Below are positions 7,465 through 38,663 of a stretch of 64,000 nt of DNA, piece after piece. This DNA comes from Dehalococcoidia bacterium (lineage in GTDB: Bacteria; Chloroflexota; Dehalococcoidia; Lucifugimonadales; G963668185), in assembly GCA_963668185.1 (NCBI GenBank), contig OY764162.1:852754-916753 (forward strand). The letters are read 5' to 3'. The position numbers were made by a program, and so were the translations under genes. Each line of letters begins with the position of its first letter. The first letter of the stretch is position 1. The notes under the pieces are model-generated. The model saw only the letters and a list, made by a program, of their open reading frames with translations, was not told where the DNA came from and ran no database searches.

Positions 7465-7710
7465 ATGGTAACGGTAAACGTCCACGAAGCGAAGACCCAC
7501 CTGTCGCGCCTGCTGAAGCGTGTCGAGGAAGGCGAAGAGGTCATCATCGCCCGGAACGGCAGTCCGGTGGCGCGGCTGGCGCGAGTGGAGCCTGAAGGCA
7601 AGCGGCAATTCGGCGCTTTGAAAGGCAACAAGATGTGGGAGGAGTTGAGCGACATCATCTCCGAGCCTCTGCCGCCGGAGGAGTTGGCCTTGTGGGAAGG
7701 CGGCCCCTAG
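7465..7710 (+). CDS. Phd/YefM-type antitoxin (VapB-like)
   Basis: 'MVTVNVHEAKTHLSRLLKRVEEGEEVIIARNGSPVARL' is a classic Phd/YefM N-terminus. The stop abuts the PIN gene start. Confidence 0.85.
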   Translation: MVTVNVHEAKTHLSRLLKRVEEGEEVIIARNGSPVARLARVEPEGKRQFGALKGNKMWEELSDIISEPLPPEELALWEGGP

Positions 7711-8097
7711 TTGCGGCTGCTGCTCGACACCCATGCCTTCATCTGGTGGGTGAACGGGAGCGAACGCTTGCCGGGGCGCATCCGCCGCGTCATCGACGAC
7801 GGCGCAAACGTTGTATTCGTAAGCGCGGCCTCGGCATGGGAGATAACCACCAAGTACCGCCGGGGCAGGCTGGAAGAAGCCATGCGGATAGCCTCGGACG
7901 TCGCCGGCGTCATCGCTGTCCAGAGTTTCAAGGAGTTGTCCATAACGGTCGACGACGCCGCGCGAGCGGGCGCGCTTCCGGGCCCGCTCCGCGACCCCTT
8001 CGACCGGATGCTCATAGCCCAGGCGCTGTCGCGCGACCTGGTCCTCATCTCGAGCGAGTCCTCCTTCGATCAGTACCGCGTTCGCCGCTTGTGGTGA
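7711..8097 (+). CDS. vapC: PIN-domain toxin VapC
   Basis: 'LLLDTHAFIWW...' with an acidic PIN signature. The TTG start sits directly after the antitoxin TAG. Confidence 0.85.
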   Translation: MRLLLDTHAFIWWVNGSERLPGRIRRVIDDGANVVFVSAASAWEITTKYRRGRLEEAMRIASDVAGVIAVQSFKELSITVDDAARAGALPGPLRDPFDRMLIAQALSRDLVLISSESSFDQYRVRRLW

Positions 8098-8204
8098 GCA
8101 GCCGCCGTACCCGTCCGCCGCCTCCTGCAAGGCCGGCCGGTTGGCGCTCTAGATGGCAGCCATCCAGGGTGTCCGACTTCCCTTTCTAGCAGTAACATAG
8201 ACAA

Positions 8205-11033
8205 ATGACAGTCCGAAACACCGACCCTGAGACAATCCGCGAGGAAGGCGTCAACGTCCTTCTCGCCCAGGCCCTCCGCGCTCACGGTCTGCAGGCCAGG
8301 GCGGAGCGCCGCACGCGCAAAGGCGCGCCCGACGTTCGCGTCGACCTGAAAACCCGCGATAGCTTCGTCCTGGAGTGCAAGTGGGAAGGCGCCGCCGGCC
8401 TCCTCGATACCCAGCTTGATGGCCGCCTCAAAGACTTCCCCGACGCCCTCGGCGTAATCGGCGTCCTCTACCCGGACCGGCTCAAGTTCGAGGAGAACAC
8501 CGACGCCGCTCTCAATACCGCTGACGACCTCAGTTGGTGGCTCCACGGCTCCCGCGGAGTGGCCCTGCCCGAACCGCGCGTCGTCAGAACGGGCTCGGTG
8601 TCCGCGCTCGCCGACCATCTACGAACGATGCCGCTGGAGTTGGAGGGCGTGGACCGCGTACTCGCCGCCGCCGGCGCCATCGAGTACGCGCTCGAACAGG
8701 CGGCGGAGCGGGCCGACGGCCACGCCCGGGTGTCCGGTCGAATCGCCGGAATCATCGCCGTCACGGACCAGGAGAAGAATCGCGCCGCCGCCCTTCGCAT
8801 CGGATGCCTCGTGCTTTTCAACGCCCTTGCCTTTCAGGAGCGTCTCGCCGCCGTCAACGGGGAGGTCCCCACGGTCAGGGAGGCGCTTGCTCAGGGCATC
8901 ACAGGGTTGCGCGACGCCTGGCAGTACATTTGCGAACACATCGACTATGTGCCCGTCTTCGAACTCGCGGCCAACATTCTTGATGTTCTCGAGAACGGTC
9001 CGGACTACGTCCGCATGCCGGTGATCGAGCCCCTGGTCAAGGCGATGGAAGAAACGCACAACCTCGAAGGGCACGACCTGTCTGGCCGGCTGTTCCACAC
9101 TCTCCTGACCGATGCCAAGTTCACAGGCGCGTACTACACCTCGGTTCCCGCCGCCGCGCTTCTCGCCCGGCTCGTTTTCCACGGCTGGCCGCCCCACGTC
9201 GACTGGGCAGACCACGAGTTCCCCGCTTCCCTCAACGTGGCGGACCTCGCCTGCGGCACCGGCACGCTGCTGATGGCCGTCGCCTCCGAGGCCGAGCGCC
9301 TTCACAGGACCGCCGGCGGTACGAAGGCCGCCGACCTGCACAAGGCCATGGTCGAGCAGGCCCTGCACGGCTACGATGTCCAGCTATCCGCCATACACTT
9401 CGCCGCCACCAGCCTCGCCATGCTGAACACCGATATACAGTTCGACCGCATGAACCTCTACGTCATGCCCCTCGGAGTGGAAGGCGCCAGCGTGTCCCTG
9501 GGCTCGCTGGACTTCCTGGGCCGCGATGAGGTCCCGGTCCAGTACTCATTAACCGGCGCGGGCATGGGAGTCCCGGCAAAGGATGCCGAAAAGGTGTCAG
9601 GCACAGGACACGCGGGCGCGGCGAAAGGCGAGACCGCCCGCCTGCCGGAGTTGGACCTTGCCATCATGAACCCGCCGTTTACCCGCTCCGTGGGCGGCAA
9701 TCTGCTGTTCGGCAGCCTGCCCCCGGCGGAGCGGCGCAAGCTCCAGAACGAGCTTTCGCGCCGCCTGAAGTCACACCATGCGTCCGCAACCGCCGGTCTC
9801 GGCGCCGCGTTCGTGGCGGCAGCCAGTCCCAAGCTGCGACCCGGCGAGGGACGCCTTGCGCTCGTGCTGCCCGCCACAGTCTGCACCGGCCCGTCATGGA
9901 AGCAGACCCGTGCGCTCATCGAGCGCGACTACGCGCTCGATATGGTGGTCTCCTCACACGATCCGCAACGCTGGAACTTCTCGGACAGCACCGACCTTTC
10001 CGAGGCGTTGCTGATCGCCACGCGCCGCCCCGCCGTTCCCGGCACAGTCGAACGCCGCACCACGTTCGTGAACCTCTGGCAGAACCCCGACGGCGTGACC
10101 GACGCTCACCGGGTGGCCCAGGCCGTCGCCTCTACCACGCCCGCGAAGTTCGAGGAGACGGGCACCGCCCTGCTCGAAGTGGACGGACGGCACATTGGCG
10201 AAGTCCTGTCCATCCCCGAATCGAGACTCAAAGGCGGCAAATGGTCAGGCGTACAGTTCGCCCGCGCCGACCTCACCCGCAGCGCACTAAGGCTTCTGGA
10301 CGACGGCGAAGTGCGGGTCCCCGGCGAGGAGAAGGTGACCAGCGTCTCACTGTGCCCGCTTGACGACCTCGGCCAGATCGGGCCGGACGTAAGAGATGTC
10401 CGGGATGGATTCGAGCCGACAGACGCCGTGACCGCCTACCCCATGGTTGAGGGAAACGACACTGAGCAGAGGACGCGCTTGGCCACCGGGCCCGACAAGT
10501 ACCTTGCCCCGCTTCCCAATCCCAAGCCCGGTCGCAAACTCAAGCGGGTTGATCAGCTATGGCCCAAGGCAGGCAGACTCCTCATCGCCGAAAGACTGCG
10601 ATTAGGAACAGCTAGAGTCGCCGCAATGCACATCGACGCACCAGTGCTATCTAACGTGTGGTGGCCCGTCAAGGCAGACAGCCGCGCTCTTGAGAAGGCA
10701 ATCGCTGTATGGCTGAACAGCAGCGTCGGCCTGCTTGCCCTGCTGGCGATTCGCAACACTACGGAAGGTAGTTGGATAAAGTTGAAGAAGGCTGATCTAC
10801 GTACGCTCCCCGTCCTCGACGCACGCCAACTCTCCCCAGCGCAGCTTCAAGCCCTAGCAGACCTGTTCGACGAACTCGCCCAGTCCGACTTCGAGCGCCT
10901 GCCAGCCATGGCCCACTGCAAAGCCCGCCGCACCCTCGACAACGGCCTCTCCCGCATCCTGAACCTCCCAGACCTCGCAACCCTCCGCACCCTCCTATCC
11001 ACCGAACCCGTAATCTCCAACCACCGGCTGTAA
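8205..11033 (+). CDS. Fused PD-(D/E)XK nuclease / gamma-class N6-adenine DNA methyltransferase / C-terminal recognition region (Type IIG/IIL-like single-chain R-M enzyme)
   Basis: N-terminal 'APD-x13-ECK'. SAM motif I 'VADLACGTGTLLMAV'. Catalytic motif IV 'IMNPPF'. About 430 aa follow after NPPF. Confidence 0.65.
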   Translation: MTVRNTDPETIREEGVNVLLAQALRAHGLQARAERRTRKGAPDVRVDLKTRDSFVLECKWEGAAGLLDTQLDGRLKDFPDALGVIGVLYPDRLKFEENTDAALNTADDLSWWLHGSRGVALPEPRVVRTGSVSALADHLRTMPLELEGVDRVLAAAGAIEYALEQAAERADGHARVSGRIAGIIAVTDQEKNRAAALRIGCLVLFNALAFQERLAAVNGEVPTVREALAQGITGLRDAWQYICEHIDYVPVFELAANILDVLENGPDYVRMPVIEPLVKAMEETHNLEGHDLSGRLFHTLLTDAKFTGAYYTSVPAAALLARLVFHGWPPHVDWADHEFPASLNVADLACGTGTLLMAVASEAERLHRTAGGTKAADLHKAMVEQALHGYDVQLSAIHFAATSLAMLNTDIQFDRMNLYVMPLGVEGASVSLGSLDFLGRDEVPVQYSLTGAGMGVPAKDAEKVSGTGHAGAAKGETARLPELDLAIMNPPFTRSVGGNLLFGSLPPAERRKLQNELSRRLKSHHASATAGLGAAFVAAASPKLRPGEGRLALVLPATVCTGPSWKQTRALIERDYALDMVVSSHDPQRWNFSDSTDLSEALLIATRRPAVPGTVERRTTFVNLWQNPDGVTDAHRVAQAVASTTPAKFEETGTALLEVDGRHIGEVLSIPESRLKGGKWSGVQFARADLTRSALRLLDDGEVRVPGEEKVTSVSLCPLDDLGQIGPDVRDVRDGFEPTDAVTAYPMVEGNDTEQRTRLATGPDKYLAPLPNPKPGRKLKRVDQLWPKAGRLLIAERLRLGTARVAAMHIDAPVLSNVWWPVKADSRALEKAIAVWLNSSVGLLALLAIRNTTEGSWIKLKKADLRTLPVLDARQLSPAQLQALADLFDELAQSDFERLPAMAHCKARRTLDNGLSRILNLPDLATLRTLLSTEPVISNHRL

Positions 11034-12338: not shown

Positions 12339-12524
12339 CGCACGCCGATTCCGCGCACCCGCCCAGGACGTTGAGGGCGAAGCCGCCGCAAGCCGTCGCC
12401 CCACACCCCCACATCGACCGCGCCACATTTCGACCCACCCTCTCCCACTCAGCACCCAGCCGGTAACCAAAACGTGTTCATCCAAACCCATCCAGTCCCA
12501 CCCAGTCCCACCCGTTCCCTTCAC

Positions 12525-12635
12525 TCCGACCCCACCGTAGGGCCGAAACCCGCGCGCCCTAACCCCGCCGTAGGGGCGCTTCGCGAAGCGCCCTTCCCCC
12601 GCTCGCCCTGAGCCCGTCGAAGGGGACCGTCAAAC
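12525..12635. repeat. Cluster of GC-rich palindromic interspersed repeats (families A and B)
   Basis: Family A: GGGGCGCTTCGCGAAGCGCCC at 12573-12593. Family B: GCCCTGAGCCCGTCGAAGGGG. The same units recur at 14395-14525, 29626-29655, 59027-59046 and 60559-60585. Confidence 0.85.
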
Positions 12636-12877
12636 CATAAACGCACCGGCCCCTTCCCTTCTGCGAACGAGCGTGCTATTATAGACCCATGATCGCAATA
12701 ACACACATCCGAGGCGTACCGCAGCGCGGCCCAGCGCTGGCCCTCGCGCTCATTCGAGCCGCCCTCCTTGGCTGTCACAAAGTGTCACATCTCGTACGCA
12801 AATTGGCTTATGCAGGCATCATTTCGTACACATTTCGTCCCACGAGCGAACGCTCCCCAGATACGAAAAGTGACAGA

Positions 12878-13342
12878 ATGTTACGGAACGTGACACATCT
12901 TTCAAAAGCCAGCCGCCGCGCTCGCCCCACCGTGCTACGCCTGCCCAGGTACCACCCGCCCACGAAGTCCGAGCGGCCGCCCGGCGAGCGCCTGCTGGTG
13001 TACGACGGCGAGTGCGGCTTCTGCAGCCGGTCCGCCGCGTTCGTGCGTCGAAGGGCGCGCGTGCCGGTGACGCTCGTGCCGTTCTCAGAGCTCGACGGCT
13101 GGCCCGTGCTAACGACGCTGGACCCCGAGCAGGTCGCCCGCAGCTCCCACTACGTCACGCCCGAAGGCGTCGAGTACCACGGCGGCGAGAGCATCACCCG
13201 CTCGCTGCGCCTCGTCCCGTTCGGCGCAGCCGCCGCGCCCCTCGATCTGTGGGGCCTCGCCCTGCTGCGCGAGTTGCTGTACGCGCTCGTCGCCGGAAAC
13301 CGCTCGCTCCTCTCAGTTCCGTTCACCCTGACCCCGCCGTAG
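12878..13342 (+). CDS. DCC-family thiol-disulfide oxidoreductase (DUF393)
   Basis: 'LLVYDGECGFCSRSAAFV' is the DCC motif. Start taken at the ATG at 12878 within the longer ORF. Confidence 0.65.
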   Translation: MLRNVTHLSKASRRARPTVLRLPRYHPPTKSERPPGERLLVYDGECGFCSRSAAFVRRRARVPVTLVPFSELDGWPVLTTLDPEQVARSSHYVTPEGVEYHGGESITRSLRLVPFGAAAAPLDLWGLALLRELLYALVAGNRSLLSVPFTLTPP

Positions 13343-13403
13343 GGTAGTACAATAACGGCATCCTGTAGCCTCAGTGCCTGCCAGATCACAGCAAGGAGCG
13401 GTC

Positions 13404-14393
13404 ATGGAGCAACGGCAATTCGGAGACAGCGACCTCTACACCTCCCCCATCGGTTTCGGCACCTGGGAGATGAGCATCAACTCATACGGCCACATCGACG
13501 TGGACGAGGCGGCGGAGGCGGTCCGCCAGGCTATCGATCACGGCATCACCCTATTCGACACCGCAGAGGTGTACGGCCCGTACCACTCTGAAGAGCTCCT
13601 GGCAAAGGCCCTCGGCGACAGAAGGAAGGACATCGTCCTCGTCAGCAAGGTCGGCTTCGATTACGACGACGAAGGCAAGAACCTGGGTCGCAACTCCAAG
13701 CACGACCACGTGATCGAGCGCACGGAGGGCTGTCTCCGCAGGCTGGAGACCGACTTCCTGGACCTGCTGCTGATCCACTGGCCCGATCACGACACGCCCT
13801 TTGAAGAGACGATGCGCGCCCTGAACAAGCTGAAGGACGACGGCAAGATCCGCCACTACGGGGTGTCGAACTTCACGCCCGAAATGATGGACGAGTGCGA
13901 GAAGTACGGCCACCTCGCCGCCAACCAGGTCGGCTATCACATGTTCGACCGCCGGATGGAGTCGGCAGTCCTGCCTTACTGCCTGGACAAGAAGATCGGG
14001 TTCATGGCGTACGGCTCGCTCGCGTTCGGCCTTCTAGCCGGCGCATTCACCCCGGAAACGACGTTCGGCGAAGGCGACTGGAGAAGCGGAGGCCTCGCGT
14101 TCGAACTGCCCCTGTTCCAGGAAGCGGAGTTCGCCAAGGAACTCAAGGTCGTCGAAAGGCTCAAGACCATCGCCGCCCGTTACGACAGATCGGTCGCGCA
14201 GCTTGCCATAGCCTGGACCGTCGGGCACCCGGCAGTGACCGTCGGCCTCGTCGGCATGCGCAACGAGCGTGAGCTAAAAGAAAACGTAGCCGCCGCCGGC
14301 TGGGAGCTGGACGCCGAAGTCCGCGAAGAGATAGACGCCATCTTCACCGAAGAAGGCGTCCCCACCCACACAGACACGCCCCAAGCCATCTAA
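13404..14393 (+). CDS. Aldo/keto reductase
   Basis: ATG preceded by AAGGAG. 'IGFGTWEMS...', 'FDTAEVYG' and 'LLLIHWPD' are AKR signatures. Confidence 0.9.
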   Translation: MEQRQFGDSDLYTSPIGFGTWEMSINSYGHIDVDEAAEAVRQAIDHGITLFDTAEVYGPYHSEELLAKALGDRRKDIVLVSKVGFDYDDEGKNLGRNSKHDHVIERTEGCLRRLETDFLDLLLIHWPDHDTPFEETMRALNKLKDDGKIRHYGVSNFTPEMMDECEKYGHLAANQVGYHMFDRRMESAVLPYCLDKKIGFMAYGSLAFGLLAGAFTPETTFGEGDWRSGGLAFELPLFQEAEFAKELKVVERLKTIAARYDRSVAQLAIAWTVGHPAVTVGLVGMRNERELKENVAAAGWELDAEVREEIDAIFTEEGVPTHTDTPQAI

Positions 14394-27930: not shown

Positions 27931-29547
27931 TTGAAATCGATCGCAAGCTGGTTGATTATCAGCGTGATTTTCGTCGCCATGCTTCAAGCAGGCTGCTCCA
28001 GTGAACCGACCCCTACGAGGATAACCGGAACCCTGCCGAGCCCCACTCCCGCGTCCACGCCCACTGCAACAGAAACTTCCGCCCCCACTCCCGCGTCCAC
28101 GCCCACTGCGACAGAAACTCCCGCCCCCACTCCGACGCTCACTGCCGTGCCGACACCCACACCTACTCAGGCCGCCACACCCACACCGACATCCAAGCCC
28201 ATCCCGTCTAACAGAAGGTTCGTCTCCGTAAGTGCCGGAGGGTGGCACACCTGCGGAGTGATGCGGAACGGCTACGTAGTTTGCTGGGGTCGTAACAAGT
28301 CTTGGAGCGGTTACGTTATCGGAGACCTTGGCCAGGCCGCGCCGCCGGCCGGGGAGTTCTCCTCGGTCGACGCCGGAGATATGCACACCTGTGGGGTGGG
28401 GCTGGACGGCTCCGTCGTCTGTTGGGGTGATAGTCCCGATGGGCCAGCCGGGGAATTCGCCTCCATCAGCGCGGGTCTAAGTCACACTTGTGGTGTTAGA
28501 ACCGACGGTACCGTGGCCTGCTGGGGTTATACTCCATCTTATGGCGGGGCCGCGCCCCCGGCCGGGGAGTTCTACTCCGTCAGTGCCGGAGGCTGGCATA
28601 CCTGTGGGTTGCGCATGGACCGCTCCGTCACATGCTGGAATAGCAATACAGATTTGGTTGATAACGAATTCGGCCAGGCTACGCCTCCTGCAGGAGGATT
28701 CACCTCAGTCAGTGCTGGGCATGAGCACACTTGCGGTATAAGGCTTGACGGCTCCGCGGCCTGCTGGGGCAGTGATGCATTTGGCCAGGCTAGGCCGCCG
28801 GACGGGAAGTTCGCATCCATCAGTGCCGGGTTTGAGCACACCTGCGGTATAAAGCTTGACGGCTCCGTAACCTGTTGGGGCAGGAACCTCGATAGTCGAT
28901 CCTCGCCGCCAACTGGGGAATTCGCATCCATCAGTGCCGGTAGGTACCACACCTGCGGGGTTAGCATAGATGGCTTGGTAGCCTGCTGGGGCCAGGATGA
29001 AGACGGCCAGTCCACGCCGCCTGACTGGGTGTTGGCCTCCGTCAGCGCCGGAGGGTACCAGACTTGCGGGTTGAGGTCGGACAGACTCGTCCTCTGCTGG
29101 GGAGGTATTTTTGGAGAGGCTGATCCGCCTCCCGGGCAGTTCACTTCCGTGAGCGCCGGTGTTGAGCACACATGCGGGGTAAAGCTTGACGGCTCCGTGG
29201 CCTGCTGGGGCCTTGACTACTATGGCCAAGCTACGCCCCCGGACGGGAAGTTCGCATCCGTGAGCGCTGGGTATGGGCACTCATGCGGGGTGAGGGTGGA
29301 CCGTTCCGTCGTCTGCTGGGGAAATGATGAATTTGGCCAGGCTACGCCGCCATCCGGCGAGTTCTTCTCCGTAAGCGCCGGGGCCACCCATACTTGTGGG
29401 ATGATGCGGGATGGATTCGTGGCCTGCTGGGGCTGGGGCGAAACGGGTGAGGCCACGCCGCCGTCTAACGTGAGGGCCACACCCCCTCCAAACACAAAGC
29501 CCACGCCCACTGCCACGCCGACACCTCAAGCAACGTCCACACCGTAA
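27931..29547 (+). CDS. RCC1-repeat (beta-propeller) lipoprotein
   Basis: Lipobox 'MLQAGCSSEP'. TP-rich linker with a direct repeat. About 11 units of 'F.S(V/I)SAG..HTCG(V/I)..DG.V.CWG'. TTG start. Confidence 0.85.
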   Translation: MKSIASWLIISVIFVAMLQAGCSSEPTPTRITGTLPSPTPASTPTATETSAPTPASTPTATETPAPTPTLTAVPTPTPTQAATPTPTSKPIPSNRRFVSVSAGGWHTCGVMRNGYVVCWGRNKSWSGYVIGDLGQAAPPAGEFSSVDAGDMHTCGVGLDGSVVCWGDSPDGPAGEFASISAGLSHTCGVRTDGTVACWGYTPSYGGAAPPAGEFYSVSAGGWHTCGLRMDRSVTCWNSNTDLVDNEFGQATPPAGGFTSVSAGHEHTCGIRLDGSAACWGSDAFGQARPPDGKFASISAGFEHTCGIKLDGSVTCWGRNLDSRSSPPTGEFASISAGRYHTCGVSIDGLVACWGQDEDGQSTPPDWVLASVSAGGYQTCGLRSDRLVLCWGGIFGEADPPPGQFTSVSAGVEHTCGVKLDGSVACWGLDYYGQATPPDGKFASVSAGYGHSCGVRVDRSVVCWGNDEFGQATPPSGEFFSVSAGATHTCGMMRDGFVACWGWGETGEATPPSNVRATPPPNTKPTPTATPTPQATSTP

Positions 29548-29668: not shown

Positions 29669-32155
29669 CTAGTTAGCGCCTCCGAAGTCGAAGTCGTCCA
29701 GCATGCAGCCGGTGTCGTACCCGCCCGGCGGGAACCAGATCGGTATGCACCAGGGATCGTACGCGGCTATCTTCCCGCCCGACACTCTCACGTCGTAGCT
29801 GCCGTCCGCGTTCTTCGTCACGCTCACCGTTACCCCGCCGCCTATGCTCCTCGACTCCCCGTCCGCGATCACCGAGAAGTCGTCTAGTCCGTAGCCCACG
29901 TCCGACTCGTAGTCCGGGTTGGCCGCGTTGTGCAGCGCCGGGCCGGTCCGCGCGTTGTAGCCCGTGCCGGTGGTCTGGTCGTACCGGCTCACCATCACGC
30001 CCTCGTATCGAATGGGCCGCCGCCGGTTCGGGCTCGCCGGGTCATAGACCACGGCGTGGGTGTCGCGATAGACGGCGTTCCGTTCGTCCAGCACCTCCAG
30101 AGTGGTGAAGGCGCCGGCCCGCCCGGAGTGAACGACCAAGAACTGGTATCCGCTCTCCAACGGCCTGGCCAGCGTGTAGGTTGCCTCGTCCGAAAGGTGC
30201 AGCGCCACGTCTTCCGGCTCGATCCAGCCGGCGGCGTACCGGTTGACGGCCAGCGTGGCCGGCATGTCCTGGTACCAGCCGGCGGGCCTGGCTGGAGTCA
30301 GCTCGGACATGAAGTCGTGGCGGTTGCTGTAGAAGTTCGGCCTCTTGTACGGCTTGTTGGCGTCCGGCCTCCAGGGAAGCTCAACATAGGAGTGCGGCCA
30401 GAACATCCAGGCATGGCCGATTTCGTGCACCAGCGTAGGCATTACGGCGTGTCGCACGGTGACAAGCCCAAGGTCGGCGTAGCCGTTCCACGCCGACCCG
30501 AGGGAGTAGCCTCCGACGTCGTTCAGGAAAAGCCGGTTCAGCGCCCCCGGCGTCCCCCATCGGCAGCCGGGCCTGCCCGGGTCGTCCGGGTCGCATCCCA
30601 CGACGCCGATCAGGGCCAGCCACTCGTTCTCCACGTCCTGCGGGGTTGCCCGTCCGCTCGCGTGAAACTCCTCGCCGGCGACGAAGGTCATCCGCAGCTT
30701 GCCCTGGGAGATCTTGCGAAAGTATGCGGCCACGTTGTCGTTGAGCGCATCGACCGCGCCGGCCATGCTCATGTCCACCCGGGAGCCGTCGTCATTCGGC
30801 CATTCCGAAGCGCCTGCAGGCACCCTCGCGATGTCCACGGCTATCTCCAGATCGCCCAGGGAGTAGTACGTGGGGTCCAGGGGTATGTCCAGATGGGTGC
30901 GTTCGGGATGCTTGCCCATGAAGGTGCATCCCTCGAATCCCATGAGGCCGTAGCGGACATAGCTGCCGTTGCCGAAGTAGCGTATGAGCGACAGCGGGTC
31001 CTGGCCGTCCAGGTCCGGCATCCCCGCGGCCGTCCAGGGCGAATCGGGGTTGGGCGGCGGGTCGCAGTCGTAGGGGTTGGACGGTCTCCACCAGGGCATT
31101 GGCGTCGCCAGCCACTCGTGGTCGTTCCATGACTCGTAGTTCTGGACAGGCGGTATGGTGGGGACGGGAGTGGGGGTGATCGTGGGATTGGCCGCCTGCT
31201 CCGCCGACGCGTCCGCCGCGGCTTGGCGCGCCGCTTCGGCAGCGTCCGCGATGGCCTTGGCCGCGGCCAGAGCGTTGGCCTCCGACACGGCGTTGGCGGC
31301 GTCTATGGCTGTCCCGACATCCAGGTTGGGAAAGCCAACGGGGTTGCTCAGGACCTGGTACAGAGTCGTGGCCACGTCATTGGCGTCGGCGCCGGTCGTG
31401 GAGACGGCTTGGGCCACGGCCCCCGATATGTCGTTGGGATTGACGATGATGTGCTCCAGGGCCAGGGTCACTGCCGCGGTCAGTGCCTCGGACATGCCTT
31501 TAGCGGCGGGATCGACGGGGACGGGAGTGGCTCCGCCGAAGCTGCTCATGACCTCGTCCATTGCCCTCCTCACGGCGTCGGCATCGGCGTTGGTCATGGA
31601 GACAGCGTGGGCTATGGATCCCTCCAGATCGTCGCGATATGGGCCGTTGAAGTAGGAGTCCAGCGCTATGCCCACGGCATCGGACAGGGCCGCGGCATCG
31701 GCGTTGATTTTGGCTATCTCCTCAGGAGTGAGGGTAGAACTGGAGTCGGGAGTAGGATCGGCTACGGCTGTGCCGATGTTCTCGGGAGTAGGCATGGGAG
31801 TGGGAGCAACCGCGGCCTCGGCCAACGCCGCGGCGACTGCCTCAGCTATCGCTTTGTCAATGTCCTCGGCAGTGGGCGCGTCGGGGTCTGGAGTCGCATC
31901 GGCTGCGACCTCCGTCAACGCCGCGGCAACGGCCTTTGCTATCCGCTCTTCGAGTGTGGGCGTAGGCTCGGCTGCTGGCGCCGCAACCGCCTCAGCCGTG
32001 GCCGTGGCGATGCTCTCCGAAGCGGGCGCAGGCGTGGAGGCAGCCGGCTGATCCTCTCCGCCGCAGGCCGCCAGAGACAGCGCCAGCAGGACCGAAGCCG
32101 CAACCAAGACCGGCAGACGCTCTCTAACGACAGACGTTATCGAATACAAGCTCAT
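29669..32155 (-). CDS. Secreted lipoprotein with an Ala-rich N-terminal half and a C-terminal HExxH zinc-metalloprotease domain
   Basis: Lipobox 'LSLAACGGEDQ'. 'TLVHEIGHAWMFWPHSY'. Confidence 0.7.
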   Translation of the reverse strand: MSLYSITSVVRERLPVLVAASVLLALSLAACGGEDQPAASTPAPASESIATATAEAVAAPAAEPTPTLEERIAKAVAAALTEVAADATPDPDAPTAEDIDKAIAEAVAAALAEAAVAPTPMPTPENIGTAVADPTPDSSSTLTPEEIAKINADAAALSDAVGIALDSYFNGPYRDDLEGSIAHAVSMTNADADAVRRAMDEVMSSFGGATPVPVDPAAKGMSEALTAAVTLALEHIIVNPNDISGAVAQAVSTTGADANDVATTLYQVLSNPVGFPNLDVGTAIDAANAVSEANALAAAKAIADAAEAARQAAADASAEQAANPTITPTPVPTIPPVQNYESWNDHEWLATPMPWWRPSNPYDCDPPPNPDSPWTAAGMPDLDGQDPLSLIRYFGNGSYVRYGLMGFEGCTFMGKHPERTHLDIPLDPTYYSLGDLEIAVDIARVPAGASEWPNDDGSRVDMSMAGAVDALNDNVAAYFRKISQGKLRMTFVAGEEFHASGRATPQDVENEWLALIGVVGCDPDDPGRPGCRWGTPGALNRLFLNDVGGYSLGSAWNGYADLGLVTVRHAVMPTLVHEIGHAWMFWPHSYVELPWRPDANKPYKRPNFYSNRHDFMSELTPARPAGWYQDMPATLAVNRYAAGWIEPEDVALHLSDEATYTLARPLESGYQFLVVHSGRAGAFTTLEVLDERNAVYRDTHAVVYDPASPNRRRPIRYEGVMVSRYDQTTGTGYNARTGPALHNAANPDYESDVGYGLDDFSVIADGESRSIGGGVTVSVTKNADGSYDVRVSGGKIAAYDPWCIPIWFPPGGYDTGCMLDDFDFGGAN

Positions 32156-32337
32156 TCCCCTTGGCTGCTCGCCGCGTGTTCCAAGCTCTGAGCTTGGGCG
32201 ATTGTATCAGGCGCCTTCATCACTGGGGATTGACCCAAGGCCCCTCCGCTGAGCGCGGCGGCTGGACGCGGCGATCTAGGAGAACCTGGCGCGGCTGGGG
32301 TTCGGGAGTTGATTTCGGGGCTGGCCAGCGCAATAAT

Positions 32338-32369: not shown

Positions 32370-32630
32370 ATGGTGGAATGGTCATTGCAAGACGCCAAGA
32401 ATCGCTTCAGCGCGGTGGTCAACGCGGCATTGGACGGCTCGCCCCAAATGGTCACGCGCAGGGGCGTGCCTGCCGTGGTCGTTTTGGCTGTGGACGATTA
32501 CGAAAGGCTTTGCCAGGCGGAGAAGTCCGCCGCGCCCGACTTCATCGAACACCTCCTGGCCATCCCCAAGGGCGGGCCGGAAGACCTGTTCGAGCGTGTC
32601 CCGATGAGGCTTCGAGACGTGGAGTTGTAA
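32370..32630 (+). CDS. Phd/YefM-type antitoxin
   Basis: 'MVEWSLQDAKNRFSAVVNAALDGSPQMVTRRGVPAVVVLAVDDYERL'. Confidence 0.85.
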   Translation: MVEWSLQDAKNRFSAVVNAALDGSPQMVTRRGVPAVVVLAVDDYERLCQAEKSAAPDFIEHLLAIPKGGPEDLFERVPMRLRDVEL

Positions 32631-33034
32631 TGTATCTGCTGGATACTAACGTGGTGTCCGCGCTGCGCCGACCGGATCGCCACCCTGGGCCGGCCTCGTG
32701 GCTGCAAGTCCAACGGGCCTCCGACGTGTACATCAGCGTCGTGACGCTTGGAGAAATAGAACGGGGAATCGCTCAACAGATTCCCCGGAACCCGGACTTT
32801 GCCCGCGACCTTGCCCTGTGGTTTGAACGAATCCTGGCATGGTTCGCGGACCGCGTCCTGCCGGTGGACGTGGCGACGGCGCGACGCTGGGGCCGCCTCT
32901 CGGCCTCCGTCGGCAACCGGGACGTCGATCTCGTCATCGCAGCAACCGCGCTCGAACATGGCCTCACCGTCGTTACCCGCAACGTACGCCATTTCGAGCC
33001 GGCGGGGGCGCCGGTCCTCAATCCATTCGGATAG
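32630..33034 (+). CDS. vapC: PIN-domain toxin (VapC/FitB-like)
   Basis: 'MYLLDTNVVSALRRP...' The ATG overlaps the antitoxin TAA (TAATG). Confidence 0.85.
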   Translation: MYLLDTNVVSALRRPDRHPGPASWLQVQRASDVYISVVTLGEIERGIAQQIPRNPDFARDLALWFERILAWFADRVLPVDVATARRWGRLSASVGNRDVDLVIAATALEHGLTVVTRNVRHFEPAGAPVLNPFG

Positions 33035-33076: not shown

Positions 33077-33367
33077 ATGACTAGACCGGTTGAAGTTGAG
33101 CCGCGAGAGGGCTTTCGCATCTGGTTGCGATACTCGGACGGGACTGCCGGCGAGGTTGACCTGTCGGACGTCGCCGGGCAGGGCGTCTTCGAGCCGTGGG
33201 GCGAGCCGGGATTCTTCGACCGTGTCCACATAACCCCGCATAGGTCCATCGCTTGGAACGATGATATCGAACTCTGCCCGGACGCTCTTTACATGGAGGT
33301 CACCGGCAAGTCGTGGAGCGAGTTATCGCCTGAGACTGATGCCGAAGTGACTGTCCACGATGCCTGA
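33077..33367 (+). CDS. DUF2442-domain protein
   Basis: 'VEPREGFRIWLRYSDGTAGEVDLS...' is typical of DUF2442. It overlaps the next gene by 8 nt. Confidence 0.6.
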   Translation: MTRPVEVEPREGFRIWLRYSDGTAGEVDLSDVAGQGVFEPWGEPGFFDRVHITPHRSIAWNDDIELCPDALYMEVTGKSWSELSPETDAEVTVHDA

Positions 33368-33620
33368 GCTATGCCGCTTTTACGGCATCGTCATCCGGAT
33401 GTATTCCAGGGAACATGCGCCGCCCCACTTTCACGCGGAGTACAGCGGGCAAGAAGCTTCAATAGCAATCAACGATCTTGCCGTGACTCGCGGCCGCATT
33501 CCCACGCGCGCTCACAGGCTTGTAATGGAGTGGGCCTCTCTTCACCAGGATGAGCTTCGAGAAGCCTGGGACCGGGCGCAACGCATGGAGCCACCCGGAA
33601 AGATAGCGCCGTTGGAGTGA
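33360..33620 (+). CDS. DUF4160-domain protein
   Basis: 'FYGIVIRMYSREHAPPHFHAEYSGQEA' is typical of DUF4160. Confidence 0.6.
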   Translation: MPELCRFYGIVIRMYSREHAPPHFHAEYSGQEASIAINDLAVTRGRIPTRAHRLVMEWASLHQDELREAWDRAQRMEPPGKIAPLE

Positions 33621-33634
33621 GCAAGGAGGACACA

Positions 33635-33883
33635 GTGACCGTAAATGAGTTGATACGACTGCTGGAGAAGCACCCGCCCGGCCTGCGCGTCATGGTGCAG
33701 GGTTACGAGGACGGGCACGACGACCTGGAGGCCAAGTGCGTCGTTGCGGGGGAGGCGAGGCTGGACGTCCACTCGGCGTGGTATTACGGACGGCATGAGC
33801 AGGCGCTGAGGGGCGATGAGCCAAGTCGCCATGAGATCGTGCCGGCGCTGTTCCTTCACCGCCCGTGGCACGACAGGACGTAA
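33635..33883 (+). CDS. Hypothetical 82-aa protein
   Basis: In-frame GTG at 33635 preceded by AAGGAGG (33623-33629). The stop lies 2 nt before the hsdS ATG. Confidence 0.45.
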   Translation: MTVNELIRLLEKHPPGLRVMVQGYEDGHDDLEAKCVVAGEARLDVHSAWYYGRHEQALRGDEPSRHEIVPALFLHRPWHDRT

Positions 33884-33885
33884 CG

Positions 33886-35172
33886 ATGGCAGATCAGTGG
33901 TGTGAGGTGACCGTCGAAGAGATTGCCGAGAAAGTCGCCATGGGGCCTTTTGGGTCGTCTATCAAAGTCGAGACGTTCGTGCCGGAAGGTGTGCCGATCA
34001 TAAGCGGGCAGCACCTGCACGGCTTCAGAGTTGATGACACGCCGGGGTTCAACTTCATCAGCTCTGAGCACGCCCAAAAGCTCGCGAATGCCAATGTCCA
34101 CAGAGGTGACGTTGTATTCACTCATGCAGGCAACATTGGGCAAGCCGCGTACATCCCAGAGGGCTCACAGTTCGAACGTTATGTAATCTCACAGCGCCAG
34201 TTCTACCTGCGATGTGATCGGTCCAAGGCACTGCCTGAGTTTGTCACGTTGTACTTCAGGTCGCCTGAGGGGCAGCACCAGCTTCTGGCCAATACATCGC
34301 AGGTGGGGGTTCCATCTATAGCGCAACCCGTGACCTACCTGCGCACGATACGGATTCCTCTCCCGCCCCTTGACGAGCAACGCGCCATCGCCCACGTCCT
34401 GGGCACGCTGGACGACAAGATCGAGTTGAACCGGCGCATGAACGAGACGCTGGAGTCGATGGCGCGGGCGCTGTTCAAGTCGTGGTTCGTGGACTTCGAG
34501 CCAGTGCGCGCCAAGATGGAAGGCCGCTGGCGCCCCGGCCAGTCCCTCCCCGGCCTGCCGTCGGACCTCTACGACCTGTTCCCGGACCGGCTGGCGCCCT
34601 CAGAACTGGGGGAGGCGCCGGAGGGGTGGGGGGTGAAGGCGCTGGGGGATGTGATAGAGATTCACGACAGCAAGCGCGTTCCCTTGAACAGTCGAGAGCG
34701 CATGGAGCGACAGGGGCGTTATCCTTACTATGGCGCTGCCGGCATCATGGATTACGTGGATGACTATCTCTTTGACGGCGTTCATGTGCTGATCGGTGAG
34801 GATGGATCAGTGGTCGATGACGAGGGTTATCCAGTGGTGCAATACATCTGGGGGCAGTTCTGGGTCAACAACCATGCTCACGTGCTCAAAGGAAGGAATG
34901 GGTTTGGCGACGAGCATCTGTACTTGCTGCTGAGGCAGATGCCCATCATGGCGTACGTGACCGGCGCGGTGCAACCCAAGCTAAATCAAGGGAACCTGAA
35001 ATCCATCCCTATCATCTTCCCGGGTCCGCCAGCGTGCAGAGCGTTTTCTGATAGGATTGCTCCAATGTTCCAGAGAGTACGTGACAATGCGGACGAGATC
35101 GAATCGCTGGTGGGTCAGCGTGACGCGCTGTTGCCGCGGTTGGTGAGGGGGGAAGTGGGAGTGGCACTCTGA
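33886..35172 (+). CDS. hsdS: Type I restriction-modification specificity subunit HsdS, full length with two TRDs
   Basis: Central conserved 'LPPLDEQRAIAHVLGTLDDKIELNRRMNETLESMARALFKSWFVDFEP' and C-terminal 'LVGQRDALLPRLVRGEV'. Confidence 0.9.
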   Translation: MADQWCEVTVEEIAEKVAMGPFGSSIKVETFVPEGVPIISGQHLHGFRVDDTPGFNFISSEHAQKLANANVHRGDVVFTHAGNIGQAAYIPEGSQFERYVISQRQFYLRCDRSKALPEFVTLYFRSPEGQHQLLANTSQVGVPSIAQPVTYLRTIRIPLPPLDEQRAIAHVLGTLDDKIELNRRMNETLESMARALFKSWFVDFEPVRAKMEGRWRPGQSLPGLPSDLYDLFPDRLAPSELGEAPEGWGVKALGDVIEIHDSKRVPLNSRERMERQGRYPYYGAAGIMDYVDDYLFDGVHVLIGEDGSVVDDEGYPVVQYIWGQFWVNNHAHVLKGRNGFGDEHLYLLLRQMPIMAYVTGAVQPKLNQGNLKSIPIIFPGPPACRAFSDRIAPMFQRVRDNADEIESLVGQRDALLPRLVRGEVGVAL

Positions 35173-35331
35173 GAATAGAGGTCGCCGTGGGGTTTCGTGA
35201 ACATCTGGTCGTTGGTGAATGAGAACTGATATACTGTTGCTTAGTCGTCCTCACCCCACGGTGGCGCAACCGCGGAGGGAGGGCGTAGGAGAGACAGACG
35301 CATACGACGCAGCCAGAGGCAGTAGCAGATC

Positions 35332-35823
35332 GTGACGCTCACCCCTAACATGCAGATGTCACAACTTTCCCTGGCCTACATATCGGCGGTCGCCTCCCAT
35401 GCCGGCTACGAGGTTTCGGAGCCGAGGCTAGACTTCGACAGTGTGGACGGCACGCTCAAGTCGAGTTCCGGCGGCCGCCCACGGATCGAATTTCAGGCCA
35501 AAGCCACCACCCAGGACATCCTGCGCAGCGGACAGTTACACTTTCCCCTGCCGGTCAAGAACTACAACGACCTGCGAGCCCCCACTATGGTGCCTCGCTT
35601 GCTCATAGTGATGCTCATGCCTGTAGAGCGGGAAGAGTGGCTCACGCAGTCAACTGAGCAGCTTTGCTTACGCAAGTGCGCCTATTGGTATTCCCTGGAG
35701 GGCAAGCCCACCACCAGCAACACGTCCAGCGTCACTCTTTACATCCCTACGCAGAACGAGTTCAATGCGGCACAGTTGACCGCGCTCTTACAGAAGGCAG
35801 ACCAAGGGGTGTCGTTATGCTAG
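35332..35823 (+). CDS. DUF4365-like PD-(D/E)XK-fold (restriction-endonuclease-like) protein
   Basis: 'LAYISAVASHAGYEV...DFDSVDGTL...RIEFQAKAT' follows the D...(E/Q)xK pattern typical of DUF4365. The start is either GTG at 35332 or ATG at 35350. Confidence 0.55.
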   Translation: MTLTPNMQMSQLSLAYISAVASHAGYEVSEPRLDFDSVDGTLKSSSGGRPRIEFQAKATTQDILRSGQLHFPLPVKNYNDLRAPTMVPRLLIVMLMPVEREEWLTQSTEQLCLRKCAYWYSLEGKPTTSNTSSVTLYIPTQNEFNAAQLTALLQKADQGVSLC

Positions 35824-36941
35824 TGCAGATCAGAGACCGAAAGGCATTGTCGTCGCTCTCCCTCAGCGCTCTGCGCGCCTACTTGGGAGTGCGGGGGTGG
35901 AAGGATGAAGGTCTGTGGGGCAGCCGCCCGGCCAGCATCTTTACCGCTGGCGACGAGGCCAACATGGAAGTTTTGGTGCCCACGCGGGACACTGTCGCGG
36001 ACTATGCGGAGGCCATGGCGGAAGCGGTGGCGGTTCTCGCACTCCACGAGGACCGATCGCAGATAGAAGTGTTCCACGATTTGCAGGGAGCCAAGTCCGA
36101 CGTAATACGGTTGCGCTCCTCGAATGGACTTGCCAACGAGCGGCTGTCACTCAGTCAGAGCGCGGAGCTGCACTCCAACGCTTACAGGCTGCTTGCCGCC
36201 AGCGCACGAGCCGCCGAGAGGCCCCAACCTGCCTATCGCGGACGGCCTAGCGCGAAAGTCGAGGACTTCCTCAACAAAGTACTGCCTCTACCCAGTCAGG
36301 GCGGATACGACTTGACGCTCCATTCACCCGTCGCGTCGGACATCGGCGGCCAATCCGACATGGGCGATGAGTTCCACGTCCCATTCTCCCGGCAAGTCAC
36401 CCGCAAGCTTGATGAGGCTTTGACATACACCGTATCCGCCATTGAGGATGCGCTCGTGAAGGACACGCTGGACACCTTCAAGACGCATGTGAACAGAGGG
36501 GTCAGCGCGAATTTGTGCGCCTCAGTGTCTGAGTTGGCTACAAGAGGCCAGGGAGTCACCATAGACTTGGGATGGGCTGATGTCAGGCCATCCGACCGCG
36601 TTGACTCGCATTTCCCCTTTACCGTTGATTCGGCTGAAGTCCTATTGCAGGCTTCAAGGTCATTGAGCAGGACTGAACCGTCCATGGATGAGCAGATCGA
36701 GGCCCAGGTTGTGCAACTCGCCAGAGAACCGGATCAGTTCGACGGCAGGGCTACACTCGTTTCTACTTGGGAGGGACACCCAATCAGGTTGTCGGTACAG
36801 TTCGAACAGTCCGTCTATGACACCGTGATCCATGCGTTCAAAGACCAGTCCTACGTGAGTCTGCTGGGCGACATTTACCCAACTGCCAGAGGCTATGAGT
36901 TGCGCGCCCCCCGCAACTTGTTGGTAGTGTTGGAAGAGTAA
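35817..36941 (+). CDS. Hypothetical 374-aa protein, no recognisable motif
   Basis: The ATG at 35817 overlaps the upstream stop by 7 nt. Long ORF with normal composition. Confidence 0.6.
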   Translation: MLVQIRDRKALSSLSLSALRAYLGVRGWKDEGLWGSRPASIFTAGDEANMEVLVPTRDTVADYAEAMAEAVAVLALHEDRSQIEVFHDLQGAKSDVIRLRSSNGLANERLSLSQSAELHSNAYRLLAASARAAERPQPAYRGRPSAKVEDFLNKVLPLPSQGGYDLTLHSPVASDIGGQSDMGDEFHVPFSRQVTRKLDEALTYTVSAIEDALVKDTLDTFKTHVNRGVSANLCASVSELATRGQGVTIDLGWADVRPSDRVDSHFPFTVDSAEVLLQASRSLSRTEPSMDEQIEAQVVQLAREPDQFDGRATLVSTWEGHPIRLSVQFEQSVYDTVIHAFKDQSYVSLLGDIYPTARGYELRAPRNLLVVLEE

Positions 36942-37048
36942 CTCCCCTCGCCACGCTCACCAAGGCGGCGCTTGGGTGGGCCATCGCGCACGGGCTGGAG
37001 ATCGCGCCGGACAGGCTCGCAGTAAACCTTCGGAATAGATGAAGCGCA

Positions 37049-37261
37049 ATGCACAAGTACGAGATCATCATCTGCTGGAGCGATGAAGACGGCGTCTTTG
37101 TTGCGGAGGCGCCGGAGCTTGCGGGATGCGCGGCTCATGGTGAGACTCAGCAGGCGGCGCTGGAGAACATCAACGAGGCCATGGACCTTTAGCTGGAGAC
37201 GGCGCGGGAGTTCGGAGACCAGATCCCCAAGCCCAAGGGCGAACAGCTGGCGCCGGCATGA
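37049..37261 (+). pseudogene. HicB-family antitoxin gene with an in-frame TAG
   Basis: 'MHKYEIIICWSDEDGVFVAEAPELAGCAAHGETQQAALENINEAMDL*LETAREFGDQIPKPKG'. The TAG at 37190 sits where HicB proteins usually have Trp (TGG). Confidence 0.6.
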
Positions 37262-37401
37262 CCACCCTCCCCAAAGCCGCCGTCGAGCAGGCCGCCCTCG
37301 AATTGCTGTCAGACGCCGGCTGGCAACTCGCGCACGGGCCGGACATCACGCTGGGGCAGACGCTCCGCCGCTACCGGAACAGGGCCATCGAGGCAGCGTA
37401 G
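37258..37401 (+). pseudogene. Probable hsdR stub (N-terminal and C-terminal fragments joined, 47 codons)
   Basis: 'MTTLPKAAVEQAALELLSDAGWQLAHGPDI' resembles HsdR N-termini. '...LRRYRNRAIEAA' resembles the conserved HsdR C-terminal segment. Confidence 0.45.
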
Positions 37402-37523
37402 GCGGTCAAGACTGGGCGACCCCCAATTCCTACTCGCCGCGCCCAGCCGCCTGCTAGAATCTGGTACTTGGGCCAGTCAGCCTTCAAATCCGCCGCGCCG
37501 CGCGCCGAGGACCCTGAGACCGC

Positions 37524-38663
37524 TTGTTACGCAACACCACCCGTACTTGGAAATACGCCGGAAACCCGTGGGGCGAACGCATCGGGTGGGCGCTCGTTGT
37601 CGTGACAATAGTCGTCGTCACGATCGTTTCATTGGACGCGTACGACCGTTGCACCCCAGGCGACGCCGTCCCCGGCCACGTGTACGCGTTAGACTCGACC
37701 ACCGGGGAGGAACTCTGGCAACGCAAGGTCGAAGGCGGCGTCATCACCACGCCCGCCGTCGGCTTCGGCGGCGTGTACGTCGGCACGTTCGAGTCCAAGC
37801 TCTACGCCCTGAACGAGACCACCGGCGAAGTCAACTGGGAGTTCGATACCGGCGCGCAGATCAGCAGCTCCCCCACCCTCGCCGATAGCTCCGTCATCTT
37901 CGCCAACTGGGACGGCGCCGTCTTCTCCGTGAACGCCATCACCGGCAAGGAAAACTGGCGCTTCCAGACCGAAAGCGGCGAGGTCATCAACTCGACTCCG
38001 GCCGTGCTGAACGGCACCGTTTACGTCGGCAGCAACGACTTCAACGTTTACGCGATAGACCAGCGCACCGGCGAAGAGGTCTGGCGGTACGAGACCGGCG
38101 CCCTGATCCTAGGCTCCACGCCGATCTACGACAACACCCTGTACGTCGGCAGTTCCGACTCCCGCCTCTACGCGCTCGACGCCGGGAACGCCTCCGAAGT
38201 CTGGACCGCCGACACCCGCAACCGCGTCAAGAACACTCCGGCGGTAGCGTCCGACGCCGTCTTCTTCAGCAACGATGACAGGTTCATGATCGCGGTTGAC
38301 AGAGTCACGGGCGAGGAGCTTTGGCGCGTCAGGAACGCGGACAAGGTGTCCTCCCCGGCCGCCATCGCCGGCAACCTAGTCGTTTACGGGACGCAGGACG
38401 GATTCGTGACCGCGCTCGACGCCGACAACGGCAGGGTCGAGTGGCTGTACCACGCCCGGGACAAGGTCGTCGGGACGCCGCTCGTCCACGAAGGCCGGAT
38501 CTACGTCGGCACCAACGACAACAGCGTGTACGCCCTCGACCCGGCGACCGGCGAGGAACTGCTGGCGTTCGAGGCCAACGGCGCCGTACGCGGCGGGGTC
38601 GCAGCCTCCGGTGACCGCATCTTCTTCGGCACGTACGACGGCTTCATACCCCCGGACAGATAG
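37524..38663 (+). CDS. PQQ-like (BamB-like) beta-propeller repeat protein, membrane-anchored
   Basis: N-terminal TM 'WALVVVTIVVVTIV'. Repeated 'G.(V/L)(Y/F)(V/A)G(T/S).D..(L/V)YA(L/I)D..TGEE.W'. TTG start. Confidence 0.8.
   Translation: MLRNTTRTWKYAGNPWGERIGWALVVVTIVVVTIVSLDAYDRCTPGDAVPGHVYALDSTTGEELWQRKVEGGVITTPAVGFGGVYVGTFESKLYALNETTGEVNWEFDTGAQISSSPTLADSSVIFANWDGAVFSVNAITGKENWRFQTESGEVINSTPAVLNGTVYVGSNDFNVYAIDQRTGEEVWRYETGALILGSTPIYDNTLYVGSSDSRLYALDAGNASEVWTADTRNRVKNTPAVASDAVFFSNDDRFMIAVDRVTGEELWRVRNADKVSSPAAIAGNLVVYGTQDGFVTALDADNGRVEWLYHARDKVVGTPLVHEGRIYVGTNDNSVYALDPATGEELLAFEANGAVRGGVAASGDRIFFGTYDGFIPPDR

Follow-up and report, generated by a model that had tools for sequence, protein, structure and literature searches.

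What are two overlapping genes doing in the wreckage of a type I restriction-modification (R-M) operon, and has such a pair been seen before? The question arises from a 64,000-nucleotide stretch of DNA (the window) from a Dehalococcoidia bacterium of the Chloroflexota (assembly GCA_963668185.1, contig OY764162.1, positions 852,754 to 916,753), in which two co-oriented genes lie between hsdS and the remains of hsdR. Gene A runs on the plus strand from a GTG codon at 35332 to a TAG codon at 35823 and encodes a 163-amino-acid (aa) protein, a stand-alone DUF4365 domain of the PD-(D/E)xK type and a predicted nuclease. Gene B runs on the same strand from an ATG codon at 35817 to a TAA codon at 36941 and encodes a 374-aa protein with three predicted domains. 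A first-pass annotation, made from the letters of the DNA, had put the pair forward as an uncharacterized and uncatalogued defense module. We find that the pair is almost certainly a member of PDC-M02, a defense candidate represented in the PADLOC database (phage defense candidate, multigene no. 2), and we lean toward reading it as an autonomous nuclease effector with a nucleic-acid-sensing partner that has outlived its R-M host.

Assignment of the pair to PDC-M02

Both proteins were searched against the PADLOC-DB v2 models, Pfam, and NCBIfam. Protein A matched PDC-M02A (PDLC04278) with an E value of 2.3e-56, residues 1 to 159 of 163 aligning with positions 1 to 164 of the 167-position profile, and protein B matched PDC-M02B (PDLC04298) with an E value of 7.6e-96, residues 1 to 371 of 374 aligning with positions 1 to 374 of 380. 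Among the PADLOC matches listed, 25 of 25 families for A were PDC-M02A, 25 of 25 matches for B were PDC-M02B, and no system name besides PDC-M02 occurred. The gene order, A and then B, adjacent and co-oriented, is that of the cassette FAM_01850>>FAM_00842. The window and the PADLOC system share the same two proteins at full length, the same order and orientation, and the same embedding in type I R-M loci. Because every sequence-level defining feature was tested and found in the pair, we regard its membership in PDC-M02 as very nearly certain.

PDC-M02 is cassette CAS_00021 (FAM_01850>>FAM_00842, count 894), entered with the remark 'Assign as candidate PDC-M02' in Table S8 of Payne et al. (bioRxiv 10.1101/2024.01.29.577857). 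That study started from genes lying within BREX, DISARM, and type I R-M loci, looked for the cassettes in RefSeq, and retained 145 'phage defence candidates'; it tested solely Hma-embedded candidates and no PDCs (10.1101/2024.01.29.577857). Elsewhere, PDC-S01, S02, S05, S09, S27, S70, PDC-M05, and HEC-01 have been tested (PMC12881386), as have PDC-M63 and PDC-S04 (PMC12409345). The claims of the first-pass annotation fared unequally against this record. Its view that no named system corresponds to the pair does not hold, both proteins having full-length counterparts in PDC-M02A and PDC-M02B, and the pair proves to have been catalogued by the same embedding logic ('guilt-by-embedding') that had singled it out in the window. 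That the pair is uncharacterized was borne out: our literature search turned up no experimental test of PDC-M02, and the string 'PDC-M02' occurred in no main text searched. The locus is one more instance of a catalogued candidate, and it is unusual solely in the decay of its host R-M operon.

Two overlapping genes under selection

A and B are genuine, conserved genes and not chance open reading frames (ORFs) of GC-rich DNA, given the Pfam DUF4365 match of A, the numerous database homologs at E values of 1e-5 or below (more than 300 for A and more than 300 for B), and the low ratios of nonsynonymous to synonymous substitution (dN/dS). Compared with the copies in a related locus, L002, which are about 79 to 80% identical, A has a dN/dS of 0.14 and B one of 0.15, each value being an average across the entire divergence from L002 (dS about 0.86, coding identity about 79%). 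Both genes are under purifying selection. The GTG start of A is supported by the L002 ortholog, which begins at the identical position, with ATG. The 163-aa product of A is present in a public protein collection, and a genome-contig scan with the window's B protein as the single query, which returned one locus, placed a Dehalococcoidia metagenome-assembled genome among the relatives.

The two genes overlap by 7 nt in the sequence ATGCTAG, the ATG of B occupying 35817 to 35819 and the TAG of A 35821 to 35823, with coordinates and co-orientation exactly as first described. The same junction occurs in L002, L005, L006, and L010. Translational coupling, which had been proposed from this overlap, is borne out across the family, in which each of 53 non-redundant junctions is an overlap: of 4 nt (ATGA, GTGA, or TTGA) in 48, of 1 nt in three, and of 7 and 10 nt in one each.

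A predicted nuclease and a putative nucleic-acid-binding partner

Gene A had been assigned to the DUF4365 type from a motif in its translation, and this assignment stands. Pfam DUF4365 (PF14280) matches residues 11 to 155 with 69.1 bits against a cutoff of 24.3 (E value of 5e-19), the quoted motif is correct, and its key residues are conserved. The 58 homologs of A that were compared share D34, D36, D39, R49, and K57 without exception, and Q55 is conserved in at least 90% of them; D39 and Q55-x-K57 form the D...QxK motif. The protein is the nuclease domain alone. NCBIfam holds no family for it, and sequence searches against solved structures returned nothing. In work on the DUF4365-APAZ effector TmuRE, the double substitution Q62A/K64A provided the inactive mutant, and once its target has been recognized, the active SPARDA complex degrades DNA nonspecifically (PMC10810196). 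Judging from the motif and the published alignment, Q55 and K57 of A are the probable counterparts of Q62 and K64 of TmuRE, and A is best described as an Mrr-like DUF4365 predicted nuclease with conserved catalytic-type residues.

Protein B had been described as having no recognizable family, and indeed neither Pfam nor NCBIfam has one for it. A lenient Pfam scan of 72 B homologs matched no family in more than 3 members, and comparison of B with solved structures by sequence gave only noise. The B family comprises 3,876 clusters at 50% identity (E value of 1e-3 or below), nearly all of them about 375 to 390 aa in length. In 72 diverse B sequences, with a median identity of 30% to the window B, the motif GVSANLC is invariant at residues 228 to 234 of the middle domain, and the charged N-terminal residues D62, E78, R80, D88, D95, and R98 are conserved.

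Structure prediction of B followed by a Foldseek search, a check that the first-pass annotation had proposed, gave a confident AlphaFold2 model (72 homologs; predicted local distance difference test score, pLDDT, of 86.3; predicted template modeling score, pTM, of 0.82). The model has an N-terminal alpha/beta domain (residues 1 to about 105), a helical middle domain (about 112 to 286), and a C-terminal b1-b2-b3-helix-b4-b5 unit (289 to 370). Foldseek found no full-length match for B in the PDB. The matches there were confined to about 90 C-terminal residues and to oligonucleotide/oligosaccharide-binding (OB) folds, with E values of 5e-3 to 3e-2; they comprised the anticodon-binding domains of AsnRS, LysRS, and AspRS (class IIb aminoacyl-tRNA synthetases), RPA, Stn1/Ten1, and HIN-200. 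A full-length Foldseek match was obtained with gp37 of phage LE1. Since the scores against OB folds are weak but the strands, as we read the model, follow the canonical OB order, we assign the C terminus of B to the OB fold with moderate confidence and to no subtype. This predicted OB fold most likely binds nucleic acid. A second model, of residues 1 to 288, was meant for fold matching of the N-terminal and middle domains and was too poor for that use (pLDDT of 49.8). The idea that A is related to the N-terminal domain of B, the two forming a heterodimer of an active and an inactive nuclease, was rejected (hhalign probability of 0.4%).

These properties bear on two ways in which B might direct A. 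PDC-M02 might be a type IV-like restriction enzyme, in which B would aim the Mrr-like A at modified or foreign DNA; cleavage would be direct, the cell would survive, and the module would complement the type I system. Such an enzyme would fit a module that has no methyltransferase, that is recurrently linked to R-M genes, and that carries a putative nucleic-acid-binding domain in B. In Escherichia coli K-12, mrr and mcrBC flank hsdRMS. DUF4365 has a restriction-endonuclease-like fold, as this explanation would have it, but the characterized DUF4365 effector is nonspecific once activated (PMC10810196), and no known modified-base reader fold is seen in B at the sequence level; we consider the explanation quite unlikely. 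A tRNA-directed nuclease, in which B would present the anticodon loop of a tRNA to A, would be an analog of PrrC built from unrelated parts. The idea comes from the OB fold, which is closest to class IIb anticodon-binding domains, from the slot that the pair shares with PrrC, an anticodon nuclease acting on tRNA-Lys, and from the description of the SPARDA DUF4365 effector as a DNase/RNase in a passage of PMC12205087. We hold it to be highly improbable.

Pairing, mobility, and survival of host decay

A profile scan of metagenome contigs recovered 80 loci, with B identities of 27 to 53%. A DUF4365 gene lay directly upstream of B in each of the 73 loci whose sequence extends 216 nt or more beyond B on that side; the remaining 7 loci end within 213 nt upstream of B. 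The co-occurrence of the two families, which the first-pass annotation had wished to see checked, is therefore complete in the informative metagenome loci, A standing directly 5' of B in each. Every genome or plasmid locus that we examined shows the same pairing, even L001 and L004, in which A had not been called as a gene.

Several copies lie on mobile elements. In the temperate Leptospira phage LE1, the pair is gp38/gp37 and directly follows gp39 (993 to 3776 of L093), which is annotated as a hypothetical protein and contains all five MmeI-family R-M domains; by its domain content, gp39 is a predicted complete MmeI-family (type IIL/IIG) R-M enzyme beside the PDC-M02 pair. In two Mycobacterium abscessus prophages, the pair stands at the very left end, as genes 1 and 2. 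The phage copies were found through the fold match and through A. Further copies lie on a conjugative Gluconobacter plasmid, beside Fic and RelE, on a Pigmentibacter plasmid, and, in L098, among transposases, a PIN gene, and RhuM. One chromosomal site, represented by L006 to L009 and by L101 to L103, has kept the pair while the genes upstream alternate between a Schlafen-like ATPase and HigB/HigA.

The pair had been said to occupy the slot between hsdS and hsdR that PrrC uses in type I operons, and this was confirmed. In the window the pair lies between hsdS and hsdR relics. In L002 (B 82% identical) and L003 (62%), both neighbors are intact, the order is hsdM, small embedded genes, hsdS, DUF4365, B, and hsdR, and the hsdR gene (about 1,050 aa) starts 11 to 13 nt past B. 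In the deduplicated loci, hsdR is found downstream in 7 of the 27 that have at least 1.5 kb of downstream sequence, with a 47-residue hsdR relic in one more, and hsdS is found upstream in 7 of 26; the orientation never varies. A fixed slot and orientation, with these counts, would be expected of an R-M accessory or guard like PrrC, which would fire when a phage anti-restriction protein inhibits HsdMSR or would add cleavage to the translocating complex, and which would be a nonfunctional leftover in the window. The R-M relics found by some 'free' copies and the LE1 pair, which likewise follows an R-M gene, fit that explanation as well. However, about 70% of the informative loci, plasmid and prophage copies included, have no R-M gene nearby, and the partner in LE1 is an unrelated MmeI-type enzyme. 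In the window, moreover, both ORFs are intact and have a low dN/dS, averaged over the whole divergence from L002, despite the dead operon. A guard function is in our judgment distinctly improbable.

Upstream of the pair in L004, and likewise of the second pair in L005, is a 3' piece of hsdS, and in L024 an hsdR 5' fragment follows B. With R-M relics beside intact pairs in these three loci, some of the 'free' copies must formerly have been embedded. In the window, the pair is intact while hsdM, hsdR, and HicB are dead. Since the module has persisted repeatedly where its R-M host has decayed, it likely acts on its own.

Two further arrangements were seen among these loci. L005 carries two divergent PDC-M02 pairs (7513 to 9143 and 12473 to 14079), about 4 kb apart and flanking an ABC transporter operon, and the same is found in L095 to L097. 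The second pair of L005 is 40% (A) and 29% (B) identical to the window proteins, with the hsdS 3' relic before it and a DUF433 gene after it. In the transposase-rich loci L099 and L100 (7001 to 8622), A is intact and the next gene, whose start lies about 195 nt past A, is called at 313 aa; it may be an N-terminally truncated B.

Persistence amid decaying R-M neighbors, in the window and in L004, L005, and L024, would also be expected of a toxin-antitoxin-type addiction module, with A as a toxic nuclease and B as its neutralizer, that stabilizes islands, plasmids, and prophages without any sensing of phage. The tight coupling of the genes, the copies on plasmids and prophages, and an island setting rich in toxin-antitoxin pairs (Phd/VapC, HicB, and HigB) agree with it. 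Yet B, with 374 aa in three domains including an OB fold, is far above the typical size of an antitoxin and has no helix-turn-helix or ribbon-helix-helix DNA-binding domain, and the gene after an intact A in L099 and L100, which is called in a shortened form of 313 aa, would be intolerable for an essential antitoxin. We think addiction as the whole explanation rather unlikely, and note that toxin-antitoxin behavior and abortive defense are not mutually exclusive.

Distinction from SPARDA, PrrC, and Divona

Three other systems resemble the pair in part. SPARDA shares with A the DUF4365 effector domain and the QxK active-site residues, and its logic would be analogous to the one proposed below, in which a sensor partner licenses a nonspecific nuclease. 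SPARDA, however, has a short prokaryotic Argonaute protein and an APAZ region fused to the DUF4365/DREN nuclease, whereas the pair has neither, A being a bare 163-aa domain whose partner is an unrelated protein with a predicted OB fold; there is no sign of guide nucleic acids, and each of the island ORFs scanned with Pfam matched a non-Argonaute family or none.

PrrC, which is nearly confined to embedded positions in type I R-M loci (Payne et al., 10.1101/2024.01.29.577857), occupies the same kind of position in the operon. It is, however, a single protein with an ABC-ATPase-like N-terminal domain and an anticodon-nuclease C-terminal domain, in contrast to the two genes here, whose products, one of them a PD-(D/E)xK-type predicted nuclease, are unrelated to it, and neither Pfam nor NCBIfam showed an ATPase domain in A or B. 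PDC-M02 is unlikely to depend on the R-M enzyme, because most of its copies are not embedded.

Divona, a single-gene anti-phage system of Vibrio chromosomal integrons, has a DUF4365 nuclease fused to a crr6 domain (bioRxiv 10.1101/2024.07.02.601686). The nuclease domain is shared, but Divona is one fused protein, while the window has a stand-alone A and a separate 374-aa B, and no crr6 (PF08847) match was found in either. The pair is neither SPARDA, PrrC, nor Divona.

A tentative model of function

We favor the reading that PDC-M02 is an autonomous nuclease effector paired with a nucleic-acid-sensing partner. A role in defense seems probable to us, and the genomic contexts suggest that it is directed against phages or plasmids. 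The specific mechanism of a sensor-licensed nuclease, for which we infer an A-B complex, a sensing role for B, and the nature of the trigger, is offered more tentatively. In this mechanism, A would be a minimal nuclease with no sensor or targeting domain of its own, and B would be its obligate partner, with expression matched through translational coupling. B would keep A inactive, or would direct it, and cleavage would be licensed when B meets a nucleic acid specific to infection, such as phage single-stranded DNA or replication intermediates. The invader would then be destroyed directly, or collateral degradation of DNA would lead to abortive infection, as with the same domain in SPARDA. The module would work alone; it is often carried in the hsdS-hsdR slot, and in the window it has outlived the operon that hosted it.

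Several observations weigh against this reading. Many free-standing copies lie amid housekeeping genes and not in defense islands (e.g., L005 and L010). A scan of IMG/VR viral contigs gave no copy, and a tblastn search of B against GenBank phages likewise gave no match. On the structural side, the OB-fold scores are weak over their roughly 90 residues, and neither the N-terminal nor the middle domain of B drew a fold match. The literature searched holds no experiment on PDC-M02, and other candidates of this kind have failed when tested, namely, PDC-M63 and PDC-S04 (PMC12409345) and 4 of 8 cold-seep candidates (PMC12881386).

The upstream leader

The gap between hsdS and A is 159 nt. Its greater part, from 35205 to 35331 on the plus strand, is a conserved noncoding leader of the A-B genes, bearing a stretch rich in GGAG/AGAGG ahead of the start codon. 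Over the aligned gap the leader is 81% identical to L002 (about 9390 to 9515), and conservation peaks just 5' of the A start; the adjacent hsdS proteins of the window and L002 are only about 33% identical. A promoter and terminator scan of 33500 to 37600, which was not designed for non-sigma-70 promoters, gave nothing above chance. The first-pass annotation had pointed to a gap of 160 bp that could hold a promoter of its own: the gap is real and conserved, and no sigma-70 match beyond chance was found in it. The alignment suggests that the leader is a conserved regulatory element that moves with the module, and a promoter or a 5' untranslated region may lie inside it.

The remains of the host operon

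The tblastn searches of the window used as queries HsdM, HsdS, and HsdR from the related loci L002 and L003, where they are intact. An hsdM relic of the last 19 or so codons (32253 to 32309, plus strand) marks where the former type I R-M island has its left edge; it matches residues 519 to 537 of L003 HsdM with 84% identity and an E value of 8e-4. It is followed, on the same strand, by four small genes embedded in the former operon: a Phd/YefM antitoxin (32370 to 32630; Pfam PhdYeFM_antitox, E value of 7.6e-14), a PIN/VapC toxin (32630 to 33034; Pfam PIN, 6.7e-17), a DUF2442 gene (33077 to 33367; Pfam, 1.2e-11), and a DUF4160 gene (33360 to 33620; Pfam, 2.6e-23). L004 likewise has DUF2442 genes within its R-M operon or close to it. 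An 88-aa ORF with no Pfam family (33617 to 33883), directly 5' of hsdS and overlapping its GTG start, is probably another such embedded gene. The hsdS gene itself (33865 to 35172, plus strand, with an alternative ATG start at 33886) is an intact orphan with two target-recognition domains; it matches PADLOC Specificity_I over residues 8 to 433 with an E value of 1.5e-118 and Pfam Methylase_S in two stretches.

Downstream of the pair, a degenerate first hsdR 5' relic begins directly after the B stop (about 36950 to 37025, plus strand) and translates to TKAALGWAIAHGLEIAPDRL. It has a tblastn match to the hsdR N-terminal fragment of L003 and forms an 85% direct repeat with 37328 to 37354. Next comes a HicB-like antitoxin pseudogene (37049 to 37252, plus strand) with an in-frame TAG at 37190 to 37192; it is 74.6% identical to L003 HicB over 67 aa, across the stop, and has weak Pfam UPF0150 and HicB matches. 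A second hsdR relic (37258 to 37410, plus strand), recognized by tblastn with the HsdR proteins of L002 and L003, joins codons 1 to 30 in frame to codons of about 913 to 932 and then stops; by residue-level comparison, some 880 codons are deleted and the C terminus is lost. No further HsdM or HsdR match was found by tblastn in the window.

Of the three genes of a functional type I R-M system, hsdM, hsdS, and hsdR, hsdS alone is intact, and the host locus is dead. The first-pass picture of this operon was accurate in outline. It had taken hsdS to be intact, which the full-length Specificity_I match upholds, and it had called an hsdR stub at 37258 to 37401, which is real and richer than described, being an in-frame fusion of two distant parts of the gene. 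The death of the locus, likewise proposed, is seen in the 19 remaining codons of hsdM, in the two 5' relics and 20-codon fragment of hsdR, and in the stop within HicB.

The relic island spans about 32.25 to 37.41 kb, with a GC content of 0.604 against 0.635 and 0.656 in its flanks. The flanking genes (27931 to 29547, 29669 to 32155 [minus strand], and 37524 to 38663) encode, respectively, an RCC1-repeat protein of 538 aa whose linkers are rich in Thr and Pro, a protein of 827 aa for which Pfam has no family, and a beta-propeller protein of the PQQ/BamB-like kind, and are unrelated to defense. An 18-nt inverted repeat, GGCGGCTGGACGCGGCGA, with 1 mismatch, lies at both island edges (32257 to 32274 and 37434 to 37451), one arm within the hsdM 3' relic and the other just past the hsdR fragment. 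It has no other occurrence in the window, 0.06 matches being expected by chance, and may be a coincidence.

Copies of the hsdR 5' end, covering its first 30 to 56 or so codons, turn up repeatedly where embedded cassettes have their borders. The window has such copies at 36950 to 37025 and 37258 to 37347, on either side of the HicB pseudogene. In L003 (9286 to 9519), an N-terminal piece of hsdR, 77 aa in length (Pfam HSDR_N, E value of 8e-5), lies between HicB and A, with the intact hsdR after B, and in L092 (4 to 165) a fragment of hsdR residues 2 to 55 lies just upstream of A. This recurrence suggests that cassettes enter at, or recombine via, the 5' end of hsdR and duplicate that end.

Implications

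As a single locus the pair carries little weight, since a routine PADLOC run would label it PDC-M02. What is new here is the absolute, translationally coupled pairing of A and B, the probable OB fold and the invariant GVSANLC motif of B, and the survival of the module through the decay of its R-M host. The PDC-M02 family itself is noteworthy: it is large, it extends over several phyla, plasmids, and temperate phages, and its B protein lacks both a Pfam family and a relative of solved structure. If the proposed role in defense is correct, a DUF4365 nuclease of the SPARDA type would be controllable by a sensor other than Argonaute.

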